The notes below the pieces were generated by a model. The model was given only the letters and a program-made list of their open reading frames with translations. It did not search any database and was not told where the DNA came from. A program made the translations under genes and the position numbers. A DNA stretch of 64,000 bases from an uncultured Gammaproteobacteria bacterium (lineage in GTDB: Bacteria > Patescibacteriota > Patescibacteriia > Patescibacteriales > GWE2-39-37): NCBI GenBank assembly GCA_964443495.1, contig CAYUCS010000003.1, positions 132,031 through 196,030 on the forward strand. The letters are read 5' to 3'. This document shows positions 1,507-61,075 of this stretch, piece after piece; position 1 is the stretch's first letter; every line of letters begins with the position of its first letter.

Positions 1507-1566
1507 AAATTTAATTTTGCCTATGCTTTAAACGTAGGATATCGGCCAGGAGGTGTCAATAGATGC

Positions 1567-1773
1567 CTATTTTCTGGCTAGGTTCATGGCGATGGCGATG
1601 ACATAGACCGAAGATACCCCGACTATGGCGTAGATAACTCTGGACAGGGCAGTCATATCCCCGAAGAGCGTCGCAACCAAGTCGAATTTAAATAATCCGA
1701 TCAGTCCCCAGTTCAGCCCTCCTACGATTACAAGGACGAGCGCTGTCCAGTCTAGCGATGTTAAGCTTTTCAT
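1567..1773 (-). CDS. DUF378-family small membrane protein
   Basis: 68 aa with two TM helices and the family-typical VIVGGLNWGLIGLFKFDLVATLFG motif. Confidence 0.8.
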   Translation of the reverse strand: MKSLTSLDWTALVLVIVGGLNWGLIGLFKFDLVATLFGDMTALSRVIYAIVGVSSVYVIAIAMNLARK

Positions 1774-1853
1774 ACGATCACCTCCCCTCAGTTGATTTCG
1801 AGCCTTTCTGTCATTGTCTTCGGGTAGGATGAAGAAAGTATTAAGCTGTCCGG

Positions 1854-2525
1854 CTATTTGTTTTTTTCCTTTTCCTCCTTTGCGTAAGCAAAATATGAGT
1901 AGATGATCGGCACCAGGGCTACGACCAATACTATAAAAATCAGCACGGGCATCCTCCAGGAAACCGGAATGACAGTTTCGGCAAGCATCAACAGTCCGCC
2001 CAAAACGAACAGCTTGCCGGAAAGCCGATTTGTTTTATTCCACACGTTTTCGCTTGAGAGCGTCCAGGGAGTTCGTGCGCCGATAAACCAGTTGAGGCGG
2101 AGCTTGCTCATGTAATTGCCGATCAAAATAAATAGCACGCCAACCATGGCTGGCACCAAAGCGCCTATCGGCAGGTCATGCCCGATTCCGTTCAGGCCGA
2201 CCAAGAAATAGAGCGCAACCATGAAACCGATAATCGTATTCTTAAAGATGTGATAGACGCGTCCGAATTCCTGATAGCGATCACGCTTGGGATCAAGCTC
2301 CGGGACGAATAGGAGCAGAAAATAGATCGCCGCTATCATTATCGGCATGAAGAATGCGGCAGTAAATGGCGAGCTCCAGCCATCGACTTGTCCGGAAACT
2401 CCCCAGTGGCTAGGCACGCGATCAGGGAAGTGGCCGTAAAAGTAGAAGCCTGACAATAAGGAAGCCATTATCATGGCTATGGGCAGCCACTCTGTCCGCC
2501 AGCTGGCGTTGGTCGGGCTTGTCAT
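1854..2525 (-). CDS. SdpI/YfhL-like membrane protein (DUF1648 plus SdpI immunity-type domain)
   Basis: Polytopic protein. N-terminal FPDRVPSHWGVSGQVDGW motif is typical of DUF1648/SdpI proteins. It lies 4 nt downstream of an ArsR/SdpR-like gene. Confidence 0.7.
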   Translation of the reverse strand: MTSPTNASWRTEWLPIAMIMASLLSGFYFYGHFPDRVPSHWGVSGQVDGWSSPFTAAFFMPIMIAAIYFLLLFVPELDPKRDRYQEFGRVYHIFKNTIIGFMVALYFLVGLNGIGHDLPIGALVPAMVGVLFILIGNYMSKLRLNWFIGARTPWTLSSENVWNKTNRLSGKLFVLGGLLMLAETVIPVSWRMPVLIFIVLVVALVPIIYSYFAYAKEEKEKNK

Positions 2526-37113: not shown

Positions 37114-37121
37114 CATTTAGG

Positions 37122-37194
37122 GGTGGCTACAGGGAATCGAACCCTGATAATCGGCACCACAAGCCGGTGTAATAACCGCTATACGATAGCCACC
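37122..37194 (-). tRNA. tRNA-His (GTG) with encoded G-1
   Basis: Minus-strand G-GTGGCTA...CCGGC-TTGTGGT-GCCGA...CAGGG-TTCGATT-CCCTG-TAGCCAC-C. The extra 5' G pairs with C73. No complete CCA is encoded. Confidence 0.85.
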
Positions 37195-37223
37195 ATGAAG
37201 CCTATCGATTGATAGACTAAAAT

Positions 37224-37252
37224 AATATACTGTAAACTTTGATTCTTGGCAA
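37224..37252 (-). promoter_or_regulatory. Promoter of tRNA-His
   Basis: Minus-strand TTGCCA (37252-37247), 17 nt, TATATT (37229-37224), about 25 nt upstream of the tRNA 5' end. Confidence 0.6.
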
Positions 37253-37256
37253 GACC

Positions 37257-37321
37257 AGTACCCCCGGCAGCCTGCCTGCCGGCAGGCAGGGAGTCGAAGG
37301 GGCGGAAGCCCCACGCCGAAC
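37257..37321 (-). repeat. Displaced copy of the tRNA-Arg 3' end plus conserved GC hairpin (att-like remnant)
   Basis: Minus strand: CGGCGT-GGGGCTTCCGCCCC-TTCGACTC-[20-nt perfect palindrome]-CTGCCGGGGGTACT. The flanks are identical to 37387-37408 inside tRNA-Arg. Confidence 0.7.
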
Positions 37322-37388
37322 AGTAAATTCTTGACCAAGCCAGGAATAATAATATTTAACCCCAGAAGAATCTGGGCTTAAATATTAG

Positions 37389-37460
37389 TACCCCCGGCAG
37401 GAGTCGAACCTACGTAACCAGCTTAGAAGGCTGGTGTTCTATCCGTTGAACTACGGGGGC
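37389..37460 (-). tRNA. tRNA-Arg (TCT)
   Basis: GCCCCCG-TA-GTTC-AACGGATA-GAAC-A-CCAGC-CTTCTAA-GCTGG-TTAC-GTAGG-TTCGACT-CCTGC-CGGGGGT-A. 72 nt, no CCA encoded. Confidence 0.88.
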
Positions 37461-37698
37461 AAAAATGACAAATTTGCCATTTTTTTGGCAAATATTAGTC
37501 ATTAGTAATATAAATTGTAGCAAAAAAGCGCAGAAAAGTCAAAGGCTTGAAAAAAAATAGCCTTTGTGTTATGGTTTGGAAGTATTTTAATAAATAAATG
37601 ACCCTTTCTTGGACCTCGGATGCTTTGCGTATATATATGTAAGGCGCTTCTTCGGAAAAAGAGGTTACCCGATTCTCGGATAGGGACACGACAAACGA

Positions 37699-38118: not shown

Positions 38119-38616
38119 ATGATAAAACACAAGGAGCAACGGGTGGGGGTCTTGGTCGACGTATCGAACATGTACCATTCATCTAAAAATCTTTTCAAGC
38201 GCCGGGTCAATTACCGCGAAGTATTGAATGCCGCGGTGGCTGGGCGCAAGCTCATCCGGGCGACCGCTTACGCGGTCAAGACCGAGAGCGAAGAGGAGAT
38301 GCCTTTTTTCGAGGCCTTGTCCCAGCAGGGATTCGAGGTTAAGATGAAAGACTTGCAGATTTTCGCAGGCGGCATGAAGAAGGCTGATTGGGATGTCGGC
38401 ATCGCGATCGACGCGATCAAGCTGGCTTCCAAACTGGACGTCATCGTGCTCGTCACGGGCGACGGCGACTACATCCCATTGGTCAACTACCTGCAGAACA
38501 CTACGGGTTGCCTGGTCGAAGTGGTCGGTTTCCGCCAAACGACTTCATCGAAGTTGATCGAGGAAGCTGACGATTTCACCAACCTGAGCGAGAATAGGAA
38601 ATTCTTATTGCGATAG
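38119..38616 (+). CDS. NYN-domain (LabA/DUF88-like) putative ribonuclease
   Basis: VGVLVDVSNMY ... LVTGDGDYIPLV. These are the acidic residues typical of the NYN/PIN-like fold. Confidence 0.8.
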   Translation: MIKHKEQRVGVLVDVSNMYHSSKNLFKRRVNYREVLNAAVAGRKLIRATAYAVKTESEEEMPFFEALSQQGFEVKMKDLQIFAGGMKKADWDVGIAIDAIKLASKLDVIVLVTGDGDYIPLVNYLQNTTGCLVEVVGFRQTTSSKLIEEADDFTNLSENRKFLLR

Positions 38617-47150: not shown

Positions 47151-47198
47151 ACAAGCAATATAAAACACCCCTAATTAGGAGTGTTTTATATTGCTTGT
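47151..47198. repeat. 48-nt near-perfect palindrome
   Basis: ACAAGCAATATAAAACAC ... GTGTTTTATATTGCTTGT with centre CCCTAATTAGGA (one mismatch). The outer arms extend to GTTCGAGTCCC (47130) / GGGACTCGAAC (47208). Confidence 0.8.
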
Positions 47199-47240
47199 GC
47201 CGCGGGAGGGACTCGAACGGGGCGGAAGCCCCACGCCGTC
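47195..47240 (-). repeat. Displaced copy of the tRNA-Leu(TAA) 3' end plus conserved GC hairpin (att-like remnant)
   Basis: 47195-47218 is identical (24 nt) to 47374-47397 in the tRNA. It is followed on the T-loop side by GGGGCGGAAGCCCC-ACGCCG (47219-47238). Confidence 0.75.
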
Positions 47241-47376
47241 ATCTAGAGGGTTTCGTTTGTTTTTTAGTAAGAGCAAATAATTTGTCATTACTTAATTAAC
47301 CTCCTTCATCTAAGGTTTCTCGTACTTCCGACAACGCAAATAAAAAAGCCCCAGGTTACTGGAACTTTTTTATTTG

Positions 47377-47459
47377 TGCCGCGGGAGGGACTCGAACCCT
47401 CACGAGATTGCTCTCAGCAGATTTTAAGTCTGCCGCGTATACCATTCCGCCACCACGGC
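47377..47459 (-). tRNA. tRNA-Leu (TAA), long variable arm
   Basis: GCCGTGG...GCAGA-CTTAAAA-TCTGC-variable arm-GAGGG-TTCGAGT-CCCTC-CCGCGGC-A. No CCA encoded. It lies 6 nt after the tmRNA 3' end. Confidence 0.85.
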
Positions 47460-47465
47460 CGGATG

Positions 47466-47843
47466 TGGAGATGAGGAGAGTTGAACTCCTGTCTAATAAA
47501 GTTTTTAAAAACAGTTTACAAGCCGTAGCCGCTTTGTTTGTCTGACTGCAATCATCAAAAGTGGCAAAAGCGATTGCAGCGATCCCTAAAGTTTCGGACG
47601 AGCGGCCAGGGCCTCCGCTTGCCTATCTCTGAAAGATAACACCCGGATCGCGAGACCAGAGACTACCCGCGGCGGATGGTTGCGGCGATTTAAGCGGCAA
47701 CAGGTGCAAAGGCAGGTACCTTCCAGGTAAAGCCTTTGGCTAAAGTGTTTTTGGCACTTATGAATTTGAATCGGATTAAGGTGGCGATCCTGCACCGGCT
47801 TGAGTGTTTTCAAAGTTCTTTACTATCGATGCCCGTCATCCCC
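47466..47843 (-). ncRNA. ssrA: tmRNA (SsrA)
   Basis: 5' GGGGATGACGGGCATCGATAG. 3' AGGAG-TTCAACT-CTCCT-CATCTCC-A with a G3:U70 pair. Tag frame GCC AAA AAC ... GTT GCC GCT TAA gives AKNTLAKGFTWKVPAFAPVAA. Directly downstream of smpB. Confidence 0.88.
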
Positions 47844-47858: not shown

Positions 47859-48326
47859 CTATCGATGCGACAGTTTTTGCAGGCTTCGGAGCTTGCGGTC
47901 ACTTTCGCGCTGCTTGATAACATCGCGTTTGTCGTATTTCTTGCGACCCTTGCCTATGCCGAACTCCAGCTTAAGCAAGCTGCGTTTAGTATAGATTTTA
48001 ATCGGAACCAGTGTCAAGCCTTGCTCCTGCTTCTTGCCGATCAGAAAATTGATTTCTTTTTTCTTCAAAAGCAGCTTACGGGAGCGGTAAGGGTCGTAAC
48101 CGTCCAGCTTGCTGGCGTGCTTATATGCCGGAATATGGGCATTGATCAGGTAGAGTTCCGGTAGCTTAAGGTTGCCAGTCTTGACGGTAACGAAGGCGCC
48201 TTTTAGGCTAACATGACCAGTTTTTACCGATTTTACCTCCTGGCCGAACAAAACCAGGCCAGCCTCAAAAGTCTGGCTGATATCATAGTCGAATTTGGCG
48301 CGTTTGTTGTAGGCTAAGGTTGGCAT
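47859..48326 (-). CDS. smpB: SsrA-binding protein SmpB
   Basis: NKRAKFDYDI..FEAGLVLFGQEVKS, YDPYRSRKLLLKKKEI and a basic C-terminal tail. Confidence 0.93.
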   Translation of the reverse strand: MPTLAYNKRAKFDYDISQTFEAGLVLFGQEVKSVKTGHVSLKGAFVTVKTGNLKLPELYLINAHIPAYKHASKLDGYDPYRSRKLLLKKKEINFLIGKKQEQGLTLVPIKIYTKRSLLKLEFGIGKGRKKYDKRDVIKQRESDRKLRSLQKLSHR

Positions 48327-60881: not shown

Positions 60882-60965
60882 GCCGAGGTGGTGAAATTGG
60901 TATACACGCATGCTTCAGGTGCATGTGGGGGCAACCCCGTGGAGGTTCAAGTCCTCTTCTCGGCA
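60882..60965 (+). tRNA. tRNA-Leu (CAG), long variable arm
   Basis: GCCGAGG...CATGC-TTCAGGT-GCATG-variable arm GGGGGCAACCCC-GGAGG-TTCAAGT-CCTCT-TCTCGGC-A. No CCA encoded. Confidence 0.85.
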
Positions 60966-61038
60966 CAAGATAAATTAATCCCTTTAGGGATTAATTGAGC
61001 TTGAGTTGAGGAAGTGGTAAAGAACTTCCATATTCAAC

Positions 61039-61075
61039 GGGGCTTCCGCCCCTTCAAGTCCTCTTCTCGGCACAA
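61039..61075 (+). repeat. Displaced copy of the tRNA-Leu(CAG) 3' end preceded by the conserved GC hairpin (att-like remnant)
   Basis: GGGGCTTCCGCCCC (61039-61052) is followed by TTCAAGTCCTCTTCTCGGCACAA (61053-61075), identical to 60946-60968. Confidence 0.75.

Follow-up and report, generated by a model that had tools for sequence, protein, structure and literature searches.

Small insertion modules that appear to split, rebuild and duplicate tRNA gene ends in the T-loop: a probable new family on Patescibacteria-like contigs

Why does the 3' end of an intact transfer RNA (tRNA) gene recur a short distance downstream, set behind a GC-rich hairpin and itself split by a perfect palindrome? This question is raised by the tRNA-Arg(UCU) locus of a 64,000-nucleotide (nt) stretch of bacterial DNA, referred to here as the window (contig CAYUCS010000003.1, positions 132,031 to 196,030). 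A preliminary description of the window reported a duplication of the tRNA-Arg 3' end at 37257-37298, interrupted by a 20-nt palindrome, and on reading both strands we found these coordinates to hold. The proximal repeat lies at 37387-37408 and corresponds to tRNA-Arg nt 54-76 up to 3 nt beyond the discriminator; the distance between the repeats is 88 nt (37299-37386) and not about 108 nt as first given. On the plus strand, the hairpin GGGGCGGAAGCCCC (37299-37312) followed by ACGCC (37313-37317) adjoins the T-loop side of the distal copy. The other side of the copy does adjoin the promoter of tRNA-His (37120-37193), as had been noticed: the promoter-like site TTGCCA-17-TATATT begins 4 nt after it (Table 1). 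Our analysis places this locus in what is very probably a coherent, previously uncatalogued family of T-loop insertion modules, which split a tRNA gene in the T-loop, rebuild its end and leave the old end behind a GC hairpin. The Arg interval is, on balance, best read as the downstream half of an insertion cassette without an open reading frame (ORF), situated in the T-loop of tRNA-Arg(UCU) between nt 53 and 54.

The hairpin is shared, as the preliminary description had stated, by two other tRNA genes of the window, tRNA-Leu(taa) and tRNA-Leu(cag), and each has an exact copy of its tRNA tail behind it. The 14-mer hairpin was found three times in the window (0.44 expected) and the 19-mer GGCGTGGGGCTTCCGCCCC twice (0.05 expected). 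All three GGGGCTTCCGCCCC hairpins lie directly 5' of an exact copy of nt 54-76 of a tRNA that is encoded 72-143 nt upstream on the same strand. The spacer measures 143 nt for tRNA-Leu(taa), where the exact copy has 24 nt, 72 nt for tRNA-Leu(cag), with a copy of 23 nt, and 75 nt for tRNA-Arg(tct). Modules thus accompany three of the five window tRNAs; a search for downstream copies of tRNA tails gave none behind tRNA-His, tRNA-Gly or the transfer-messenger RNA (tmRNA) gene. The three modules have in common only the hairpin and a few flanking bases.

The association with tRNA 3' ends extends well beyond the window. An unbiased scan with the 19-mer, in which each species was represented by one genome, returned 21 matches. 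Thirteen of them, located in genomes of 60-72% GC and inside unrelated sequence, are chance occurrences, and apart from such matches in GC-rich DNA the link between motif and tRNA end holds: all eight matches in genomes of 34-43% GC are followed by a tRNA tail, with the corresponding tRNA 70-150 nt upstream wherever the contig is long enough. These eight come from Parcubacteria, Falkowbacteria, unclassified bacteria and one metagenome-assembled genome (MAG) labelled Gammaproteobacteria. The metagenome scan, for which the hairpin plus TTCRA was used, provided at least 120 loci (individual loci are designated by L numbers). Among the matches listed, a sense tRNA is found at a distance of up to 330 nt in 92 of 153 instances, and many of the others represent contig ends, tmRNA or tandem units. 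Spacer lengths of the distinct modules fall into two classes, S (70-79 nt) and L (140-154 nt). The copy begins at T54 (TTC) in 67 of 73 cases, with G53 included in four; it is mostly 21-24 nt long and ends 0-4 nt beyond the annotated tRNA end, the full range of repeat lengths being 19 to ~60 nt. All these modules reside on low-GC Patescibacteria-like contigs. After removal of duplicates, the genome and metagenome scans together yielded at least 87 distinct modules at no fewer than 36 tRNA species, plus tmRNA, whose tRNA-like end also carries a module (L098, L099). A search for downstream tRNA-tail copies that made no use of the hairpin detected them behind 92 of the 207 tRNA/tmRNA genes with enough downstream sequence; 81 have the exact hairpin, and the variants met among the remaining ones include GAGGCTTCCGCCTC, GCGGCTTCCGCCGC, AGGGCTTGACCCT and GGGCTTTAGCCC, as well as the loops TTCT and TTGTG. 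Rfam 15 recognized only tRNA and tmRNA at the gathering threshold and nothing credible up to E = 10 in 37150-37480, and in the literature searched we found no description of a tRNA-tail/GC-hairpin arrangement. Two scans of viral collections contained no true instance, giving either nothing or chance matches in GC-rich coding sequence, and a phage origin was rejected.

Alignment of the spacers revealed one order of parts in every member: intact tRNA, a terminator-like hairpin (termA), a segment termed X, a linker of the S or L type, the GC hairpin, the distal 3' end and the native flank. TermA is a perfect or near-perfect hairpin right behind the tRNA, with an A-tract on its 5' side and a T-tract on its 3' side. 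Its shape is kept and its sequence is not; compensatory changes occur both between tandem units (L133) and between sister genomes. The S linker has about 10 nt (consensus TGTGTCGGCGT), and L modules contain some 70 extra A-rich nt followed by TGATGGCGT. As for the GC hairpin, which reads GGGGCUUCCGCCCC on the tRNA strand in the explanation favoured below, its stem shows compensated variants (GAGGC/GCCTC, GCGGC/GCCGC, AGGG/CCCT and GGGC/GCCC), and by sequence criteria the hairpins are to be regarded as structural. The TCGG or TTGG of the linker can pair with U55-A58 of the copy, and the variable linker base (-6) tracks R57 of the T-loop (C-G 16, T-A 6, T-G 4, C-A 2; Fisher p = 0.011); therefore, linker, hairpin and T-loop can form one extended stem. 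RNAalifold, when applied to a MAFFT alignment, retrieved the GC hairpin alone, since X does not line up in columns; single-sequence folds were used instead. Local alignments hinted at a whole inverted tRNA in L modules, a candidate that we rejected: the ~70-nt middle part matched the tRNA 5' part no better than those of other tRNAs (11.98 vs. 11.93, p = 0.9), and lenient global alignments equalled the control. We also observed a recurrent, non-random substitution of the T-loop TTCGA by GTGAGA in the distal copies of L016 (1231-1254) and L071 (downstream copy of a tRNA-Arg), the remaining tail being intact.

Which of the two tRNA ends is the newcomer can be decided from the flanks. Between the distal copy and the start of the next tRNA there are 1-5 nt in L024 and L101. 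Empty sites in related genomes, for which the preliminary description proposed a search, do exist. In a syntenic Ile-Met-Phe-Pro-Gly cluster, the Pro-to-Gly spacer is empty in L040 and filled in L033 and L021; conversely, the Ile-to-Met and post-Gly spacers are empty in L021 and filled in L040, and the difference is exactly the module. Similarly, a relative of 77% identity (L143) has tRNA-Arg(tct) without a module, and the sister locus L142 retains the orthologous one. The chromosome's original 3' end is the distal copy; an insertion that regenerated the tRNA has displaced it, as had been suggested at the outset. It follows from the native flank behind this copy and from the empty and filled sites that the inserted DNA comprises nt 54-76, termA, X, the linker and the hairpin. 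At the Arg locus, nt 54-76 of the functional tRNA (37387-37408) are part of the inserted cassette, and the tRNA-His promoter-like site, which is kept in L142, is the native flank behind the displaced tRNA-Arg end. Tandem arrays (L057, L058, L122 and L133) and partial second units (L033, L037 and L047) fit unequal exchange between direct repeats. The native tRNA spacers also contain recurrent AT-rich palindromic motifs, caattacgaat...attcgtaattg (L040 Pro-to-Gly and Ile-to-Met, the flank of L127 and several other contigs), which may be another repeat family.

Insertion into a tRNA gene with regeneration of its 3' end calls to mind integrases. Tyrosine-integrase elements commonly cross over in the tRNA T-loop, regenerate the 3' end and leave a direct repeat, and recombinase-less derivatives are known as CIME. 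The preliminary description had interpreted the repeats accordingly, as attL and attR cores of a cargo-less island. The likeness is real, since in both cases an insertion in the tRNA 3' part supplies a new 3' end and the old one persists as a direct repeat, the textbook outcome of such integration, and large serine-recombinase islands do use these tRNAs in related contigs (L094, L143). Nevertheless, we consider this explanation largely refuted and very improbable. One and the same 14-19-nt hairpin, with a fixed 53/54 junction, adjoins the tails of at least 36 tRNA species and tmRNA instead of one tRNA per element family. The architecture is constant, comes in two sizes (inserts of ~90 or ~160 bp), includes an inverted copy of the tRNA 3' part and lacks arm sites, and the repeat, apparently set by homology, ranges from 21 to ~60 nt. 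There is no integrase gene among the window proteins, as had been stated, and no recombinase, integrase or transposase domain near the three modules; nor did the loci examined contain a full-length relative carrying an integrase and ending in the hairpin, of the kind the preliminary description proposed to look for. The large serine recombinases (Resolvase+Recombinase+Zn_ribbon) of L094 (540-2141, minus strand) and L143 (577-2046) adjoin tRNA genes. Comparison of L094 with L055 showed, however, that the 7.4-kb island of L094 sits exactly at the tRNA-Gln 3' end, with its own 7-bp junction (CAGCCAA), and parts the tRNA from its hairpin module. As an insertion of its own, outside the module, it was ruled out as the parent element. 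Such inserts, namely this island and a GIY-YIG insert in L028, explain the long tRNA-to-hairpin distances.

The inverted copy is the feature that most constrains the origin of the modules. X, about 30 nt long, is a degenerate reverse complement of nt ~47-76 of its own tRNA and was located by local alignment at spacer positions ~35-65, with 75% identity, in almost all members. The spacer pairs better with the tail of its own tRNA than with other tails (-19.2 vs. -13.8 kcal/mol; better in 65 of 70 cases, p = 5e-12). As tRNA 3' part, termA and X stand in a reverse-complement relation, they constitute one long imperfect palindrome, of which termA is the apex in the Arg module. At the T-loop, X mostly reads GAGAAC where the complement would be TCGAAC, placing purines opposite R57 and A58. 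Opposite tRNA nt 61-76, C-to-T changes reach 43% and G-to-A changes 5.8%, with changes at A and T positions in 11-13% (Fisher p = 2e-29); under this bias, G.U (or G.T) pairs are preserved on the tRNA-sense strand alone. Three of the differences that separate the window from L142 (90% identity) within the acceptor-complementary stretch of X swap C and T at positions facing G. Folded with RNA parameters, the sense strands of 70 modules are slightly more stable than the antisense strands (-35.9 vs. -33.3 kcal/mol, p = 1.4e-4), whereas DNA parameters make both equal. Between orthologous modules X is no more conserved than termA (0.63 vs. 0.61), so that the notion of strong in situ purifying selection on X was downgraded.

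The same feature bears on a second alternative, namely that the modules are non-autonomous transposons resembling miniature inverted-repeat transposable elements (MITEs), mobilized by a transposase acting in trans through ~23-bp staggered cuts in the T-loop, with the repeat as target-site duplication. The fixed left junction at 53/54, the repeat of mostly 21-24 bp, the multiple targets per genome (three of five tRNAs in the window) and the two size classes, also found in some MITE families, agree with this proposal. Correia elements, for instance, come in two discrete size classes. Like REP/BIME, Correia elements, RPE and other MITEs, the modules are ORF-less, hairpin-forming, 90-160 bp long and present in many copies per genome. 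Yet, X is complementary to each local tRNA and could not have been carried by pre-made mobile DNA: in contrast to those families, each copy contains a part for which its own target was the template. Terminal inverted repeats are absent, the left end being an A-rich hairpin and the right end a GC hairpin, and insertion is strictly confined to tRNA nt 53/54. Copies within a genome are alike in almost nothing but the hairpin, or a core of 14-25 nt, rather than near-identical descendants of a master. Moreover, the duplication has no fixed length (up to ~60 nt in L039 and L067), and differences between proximal tRNA and distal remnant can extend over the entire acceptor strand. A MITE-like origin is, in our estimate, improbable.

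Differences of the latter kind are informative about how modules spread. In six loci (L027, L049, L061/L132, L081, L082 and L073) the two tails, proximal and distal, are not alike over the acceptor strand, and X fits the proximal tRNA and not the distal remnant (e.g., -26.5 vs. -15.3 and -20.4 vs. -10.7). A primary role of X as a mask of the distal copy was rejected on these grounds. Upstream of the loci with differing tails we found no displaced 5' part of an older tRNA. Since X fits the proximal tRNA and no 5' remnant is left upstream, the whole functional tRNA must have arrived with the module, leaving about 23 nt of the resident gene. Agreement of proximal tRNA and X against the distal remnant, seen at all six loci, is what homing-type co-conversion would be expected to leave, and plain homologous recombination would give it as well. 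In five further modules (L037, L060, L080, L121 and L125) the proximal tRNA has an encoded CCA and the distal tail has none (CTA, CAT, CAG, AAG and CAA); an arriving cassette may alter whether or not the gene encodes CCA.

Genes for small homing-type endonucleases are abundant at such loci. GIY-YIG ORFs (77-102 aa; Pfam 5e-16 and 2e-17) are found at 13 fetched loci (Table 1), either immediately ahead of the tRNA or behind the distal copy, and are flanked by partial tRNA copies with GC-rich hairpin inserts. A GC-rich hairpin cluster lies within the anticodon (G34|U35) of the displaced tRNA-Tyr part at L028 and L062, and one compensated pair in the anticodon stem distinguishes the two versions of tRNA-Tyr. 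The partial copy beside the GIY-YIG ORF of L049 contains the 20-nt palindrome of the window. In L142, an ORF with an HNH motif (1542-2012, minus strand) is inserted between the tRNA-His promoter and tRNA-His.

We infer, with rather more confidence than doubt, an ORF-less cassette born by fold-back copying and spread by homologous replacement. At birth, a small unit of linker and hairpin would be joined to T54 of a broken tRNA gene; during re-synthesis of the tRNA 3' end, the new strand would fold back on the terminator hairpin and copy the tail backwards, producing X. L039 and L067 show the layout expected of such copying, as far as sequence can tell: the hairpin behind the distal copy is identical or homologous to termA, X begins exactly after the native terminator, and the duplicated segment consists of nt 54-76 plus this terminator, ~60 nt in all. 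The whole cassette, tRNA and module together, would subsequently take the place of allelic tRNA genes in related genomes, through homologous recombination or co-conversion of the homing type, possibly provoked by the GIY-YIG/HNH endonuclease genes crowding the tRNA loci. A right-hand crossover within the 21-24 nt still common to cassette and recipient would give the usual repeat length, the direct repeats would allow tandem amplification as well as precise loss, and no integrase would be involved.

Free-standing homing endonucleases, such as those of the seg and mob genes of phage T4, among them SegB in the T4 tRNA cluster, offer a precedent for intron-less homing. Their cassettes likewise spread allelically by break repair with co-conversion of the flanking gene, as the proximal tRNA travels with the module, and GIY-YIG and HNH ORFs abound at module tRNA loci. 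The modules differ in having no ORF themselves, and an intact regenerated tRNA would stay a target. By analogy, the closest match to the way the module works would be a homing cassette that lacks an ORF and is coupled to a fold-back duplication.

Several observations weigh against this origin. No birth step was observed, neither a free linker-hairpin unit nor an enzyme could be tied to the birth mechanism, and a near-perfect, "young" X was not found, even tandem units already having the common C-to-T changes. GIY-YIG and HNH nucleases could plausibly drive break-induced replacement, but the link is a co-location in motif-selected loci, for which there is no background rate, and the window has neither a GIY-YIG nor an HNH gene. 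In 65 of 84 modules, tRNA and distal copy agree fully despite diverged flanks, which is not obvious for pure junk. The C-to-T asymmetry and the better sense RNA fold are compatible with a selected sense-strand structure at least as well as with a passive relic. Finally, the three window modules fold no better than shuffled sequences (z -0.7 to -2.1), a result that also weakens selection on RNA structure.

These points lead to the possibility that the host uses the module as a structured RNA, a 3' device that acts in cis on the tRNA gene, with sense-strand transcription and termination at termA. It could act in several ways: read-through transcripts might be trapped by pairing of X with the tRNA 3' half, X and the copy might form a ~20-bp G.U-rich stalk for polycistronic tRNA processing, or hairpin plus tail might serve as a decoy or spare. 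Beyond the preserved sense-strand G.U pairing, the better sense fold (with RNA parameters only) and the intact distal copies, the compensatory changes in termA and the GC hairpin, the covariation of the linker with the T-loop and the retention of the orthologous module in L142 speak for it. In L024 and L101, moreover, the next tRNA has no room for a promoter of its own, and the module must be transcribed through. The preliminary description had named two findings that would contradict a scar, a motif scattered genome-wide without regard to tRNA ends and an ancestral conserved structure; the latter stands in part, L142 keeping the same arrangement and the hairpins compensatory changes, and the former does not, the motif being tRNA-associated. 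Against a host-used RNA, the presence of the module varies among close relatives, tandem copies exist, X and termA are about equally conserved between orthologues, and promoter-like sites were sought inside the modules and none was found. Distal copies also tolerate hairpin inserts of 20-42 nt and can decay or mismatch the tRNA, and the C-to-T bias could stem from deamination of the non-template strand at a heavily transcribed locus. On this evidence a structured RNA seems unlikely, but it has to be taken seriously.

A little more room, though still as a tentative idea, may be given to a "self-templated" tRNA-gene cassette, in which the sense strand, as RNA or folded single-stranded DNA, is the working part, so that the module would be a new device and not debris. 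In one version (a), the module may be a folded substrate for recombination or ligation, in which linker and GC hairpin act as a splint that brings their own 3' end to T54 of a broken tRNA or its broken gene, with X mimicking a double-stranded tRNA tail. In the other version (b), a host-adopted RNA may lock read-through or store or decoy tRNA nt 54-76, e.g., against T-loop-cutting toxins.

A further proposal takes the hairpin for the 5' handle of a guide RNA and the 23-nt tRNA-identical tail for the guide of a nuclease or transposase, with G52-G53 as self/non-self mark, like a protospacer-adjacent or transposon-associated motif. A handle with a 5-bp stem and a 4-nt loop resembles the Cas12a CRISPR RNA, or the 3' end of the TnpB omega-RNA scaffold. 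A handle followed by an exact match of 21-24 nt, ending near a fixed length, is what one would look for, and the DNA of the guide itself lacks the GG that precedes the target. Nonetheless, no cas, tnpB or iscB gene occurs in the window or among the neighbouring ORFs examined, the conserved part is only ~20 nt long with no evident promoter, and the guide would be sequestered in cis by X. Such a guide would be aimed at an essential gene at a distance of 70-150 nt, and guides split by 20-42-nt hairpins persist. Among the explanations considered, this one appears the least credible.

Some other structured elements merit comparison. Group I introns in the tmRNA T-loop have spread across lineages, mostly without a homing endonuclease gene, and like the modules they use the T-loop of tRNA-like genes as entry point, tmRNA included (L099) (PMC11915505). 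The modules are far too small to be such introns, have no Rfam match and keep the gene intact without splicing by means of the duplicated 3' end. In L099, it is the tmRNA's own segment from T-loop to 3' end that is duplicated behind the hairpin. A ribozyme or self-splicing intron was rejected: the tRNA is complete upstream, the insert has 90-160 nt, there is no Rfam intron match, and a hammerhead core was not met by eye. Integron attC sites, CTX-phi attP(+) and IS200/IS605 ends share with the modules imperfect palindromes, structure kept over sequence, a better-folding strand and a variable centre. In contrast to attC, the modules have no R/L boxes, and the base of the palindrome is GGTTCRA...GAGAACC as against RYYYAAC...GTTRRRY, with opposite polarity; moreover, no Xer, IntI or Y1 transposase is linked to them, and the strand folds are equal under DNA parameters. 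As for the GC clusters of AT-rich organelle genomes, such as yeast mitochondrial GC clusters and Neurospora PstI palindromes, they too are short GC hairpins recurring in AT-rich spacers near tRNA genes, as do the 14-nt hairpin and the 20-nt palindrome. The modules differ in their bacterial host, in their precise positions within the tRNA sequence and in the coupled direct and inverted duplication of the tail.

The 20-bp GC palindrome at 37271-37290 is an independent insert that landed later in the displaced end. The identical 20-mer CCTGCCTGCCGGCAGGCAGG was found in unrelated contigs, each time within a tRNA fragment: in L032 (1438-1457), at the same place of a distal copy (T-stem 3' strand), in L049 (186-205), in the anticodon stem of a tRNA-Leu fragment, and in L090 (1696-1715), behind a duplicated tRNA-Arg 5' end (after nt 10). 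L142 has a diverged insert of 19-20 nt at the orthologous site and L081 a 42-nt GC palindrome at the equivalent one. The 20-mer looks like a second, independent family of mini-inserts, and palindromic inserts appear to be tolerated only in redundant tRNA fragments. In L142 (~2349-2445, minus strand) the real tRNA-Arg is also preceded by a 5' pseudo-copy of its nt 1-24, which is interrupted by 39 nt of GC-rich sequence and followed by ctaggttgggc, a stretch partly complementary to the displaced 5' end; this suggests a mirror-image 5' version of the module. About 100 nt upstream of tRNA-Arg(tcg) in L082, there is a tRNA-like 5' part (ggcactcgtagct...aactggatagagcg) whose D-arm is split by a GC-rich insert of ~42 nt containing GCCTGCCTGC.

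Table 1. Positions of the module parts in the window and of the GIY-YIG genes at other loci.
Feature	Position	Strand	Remarks and basis
tRNA-Arg(UCU/tct)	37388-37460	-	ARAGORN; Rfam, 68.6 bits; sequence
termA, terminator-like hairpin aatatttaagcccaga-ttct-tctggggttaaatatt	37351-37386	-	directly 3' of tRNA-Arg; sequence; position and shape kept in all members, sequence variable
X, degenerate reverse complement of tRNA-Arg nt ~48-76 (ttattattcctggcttggtcaagaatttac)	37323-37352	-	local alignment to the reverse complement of the tRNA
Linker tgttcggcgt	37313-37322	-	holds the conserved GGCGT and a TCGG for which U55-A58 of the distal copy are possible pairing partners
GC tetraloop hairpin GGGGC-TTCC-GCCCC, family signature	37299-37312	-	sequence; stem-compensated variants elsewhere
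Distal copy, part 1, T54-C61 (ttcgactc; plus strand gagtcgaa)	37291-37298	-	sequence
Secondary insert, perfect 20-nt palindrome CCTGCCTGCCGGCAGGCAGG	37271-37290	.	between nt 61 and 62 of the distal copy; sequence
Distal copy, part 2, C62 to 3 nt beyond the discriminator (ctgccgggggtact; plus strand agtacccccggcag)	37257-37270	-	sequence
Promoter-like site TTGCCA-17-TATATT (sigma-70-like) for tRNA-His	37224-37252	-	sequence; kept in L142
Second module, L class, tRNA-Leu(UAA)	47195-47459	-	
 tRNA	47376-47459	-	
 termA	47338-47375	-	
 X	47311-47340	-	
 A-rich middle	47238-47310	-	
 GGCGT	47233-47237	-	
 hairpin	47219-47232	-	
 distal 24-nt copy	47195-47218	-	
termB, second hairpin behind the tRNA-Leu(UAA) distal copy	47155-47194	-	
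Third module, S class, tRNA-Leu(CAG)	60882-61075	+	
 tRNA	60882-60966	+	
 termA	~60969-60996	+	
 X	61000-61030	+	
 linker	61031-61038	+	
 hairpin	61039-61052	+	
 distal 23-nt copy	61053-61075	+	
GIY-YIG gene, L028	4474-4782		
GIY-YIG gene, L049	160-462		
GIY-YIG genes, L036, L053, L055, L062, L066, L072, L085, L087, L093, L094, L117			

The genes around the window modules are of the housekeeping type and encode a DsbD-like protein, ribosomal protein S15, an NYN protein, polynucleotide phosphorylase (PNPase), trigger factor, SmpB, MoxR, a solute-binding protein, RNase J and ribosomal protein L20. The NYN-domain (PIN-like nuclease) gene (38119-38616, plus strand) is located between rpsO and pnp, is kept in L142, L143 and L144, and may be relevant to RNA processing in the host clade. 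The tmRNA gene (47465-47843, minus strand) specifies an unusually long tag (AKNTLAKGFTWKVPAFAPVAA); the tRNA-Leu(taa) gene follows 5 nt behind and smpB (47859-48326, minus strand) lies ahead. This tmRNA-tRNA-Leu(taa)-smpB synteny, with similar tags, was also seen in L002, L058 and L099. In a homologue search, the best named relatives of the window PNPase came from Falkowbacteria, Parcubacteria and the Patescibacteria group, and the sister loci were identified in this way too; judging from sequence the host clade is Patescibacteria. The MAG to which L002 and L008 belong (CAYSKV01, "uncultured Gammaproteobacteria bacterium") has a window-like tmRNA tag, the tmRNA-tRNA-Leu(taa) synteny and hairpin modules; its taxonomic label is probably wrong, or the bin mixed.

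In practical terms, the modules are a trap for tRNA annotation and for genomic-island callers, as T-loop direct repeats are read as att sites. The signature GC tetraloop hairpin together with TTCRA makes the family easy to count and to test in metatranscriptomes, and it provides a lead to an unknown T-loop-specific DNA or RNA enzyme, or to a cis-acting RNA device. If our reading is true, a small cassette under structural constraint is present at a large share of the tRNA genes of a major, poorly understood bacterial radiation; it rebuilds the gene that it splits and copies its target in both orientations. It would also represent a new route for tRNA-gene exchange between genomes, the whole tRNA travelling with the module. 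Should version (a) of the self-templated cassette prove true, it would mean a recombinase-independent entry of DNA into the universal T-loop, or one that depends on a yet unknown enzyme; version (b), if true, would have a bearing on the episymbiotic lifestyle of Patescibacteria.

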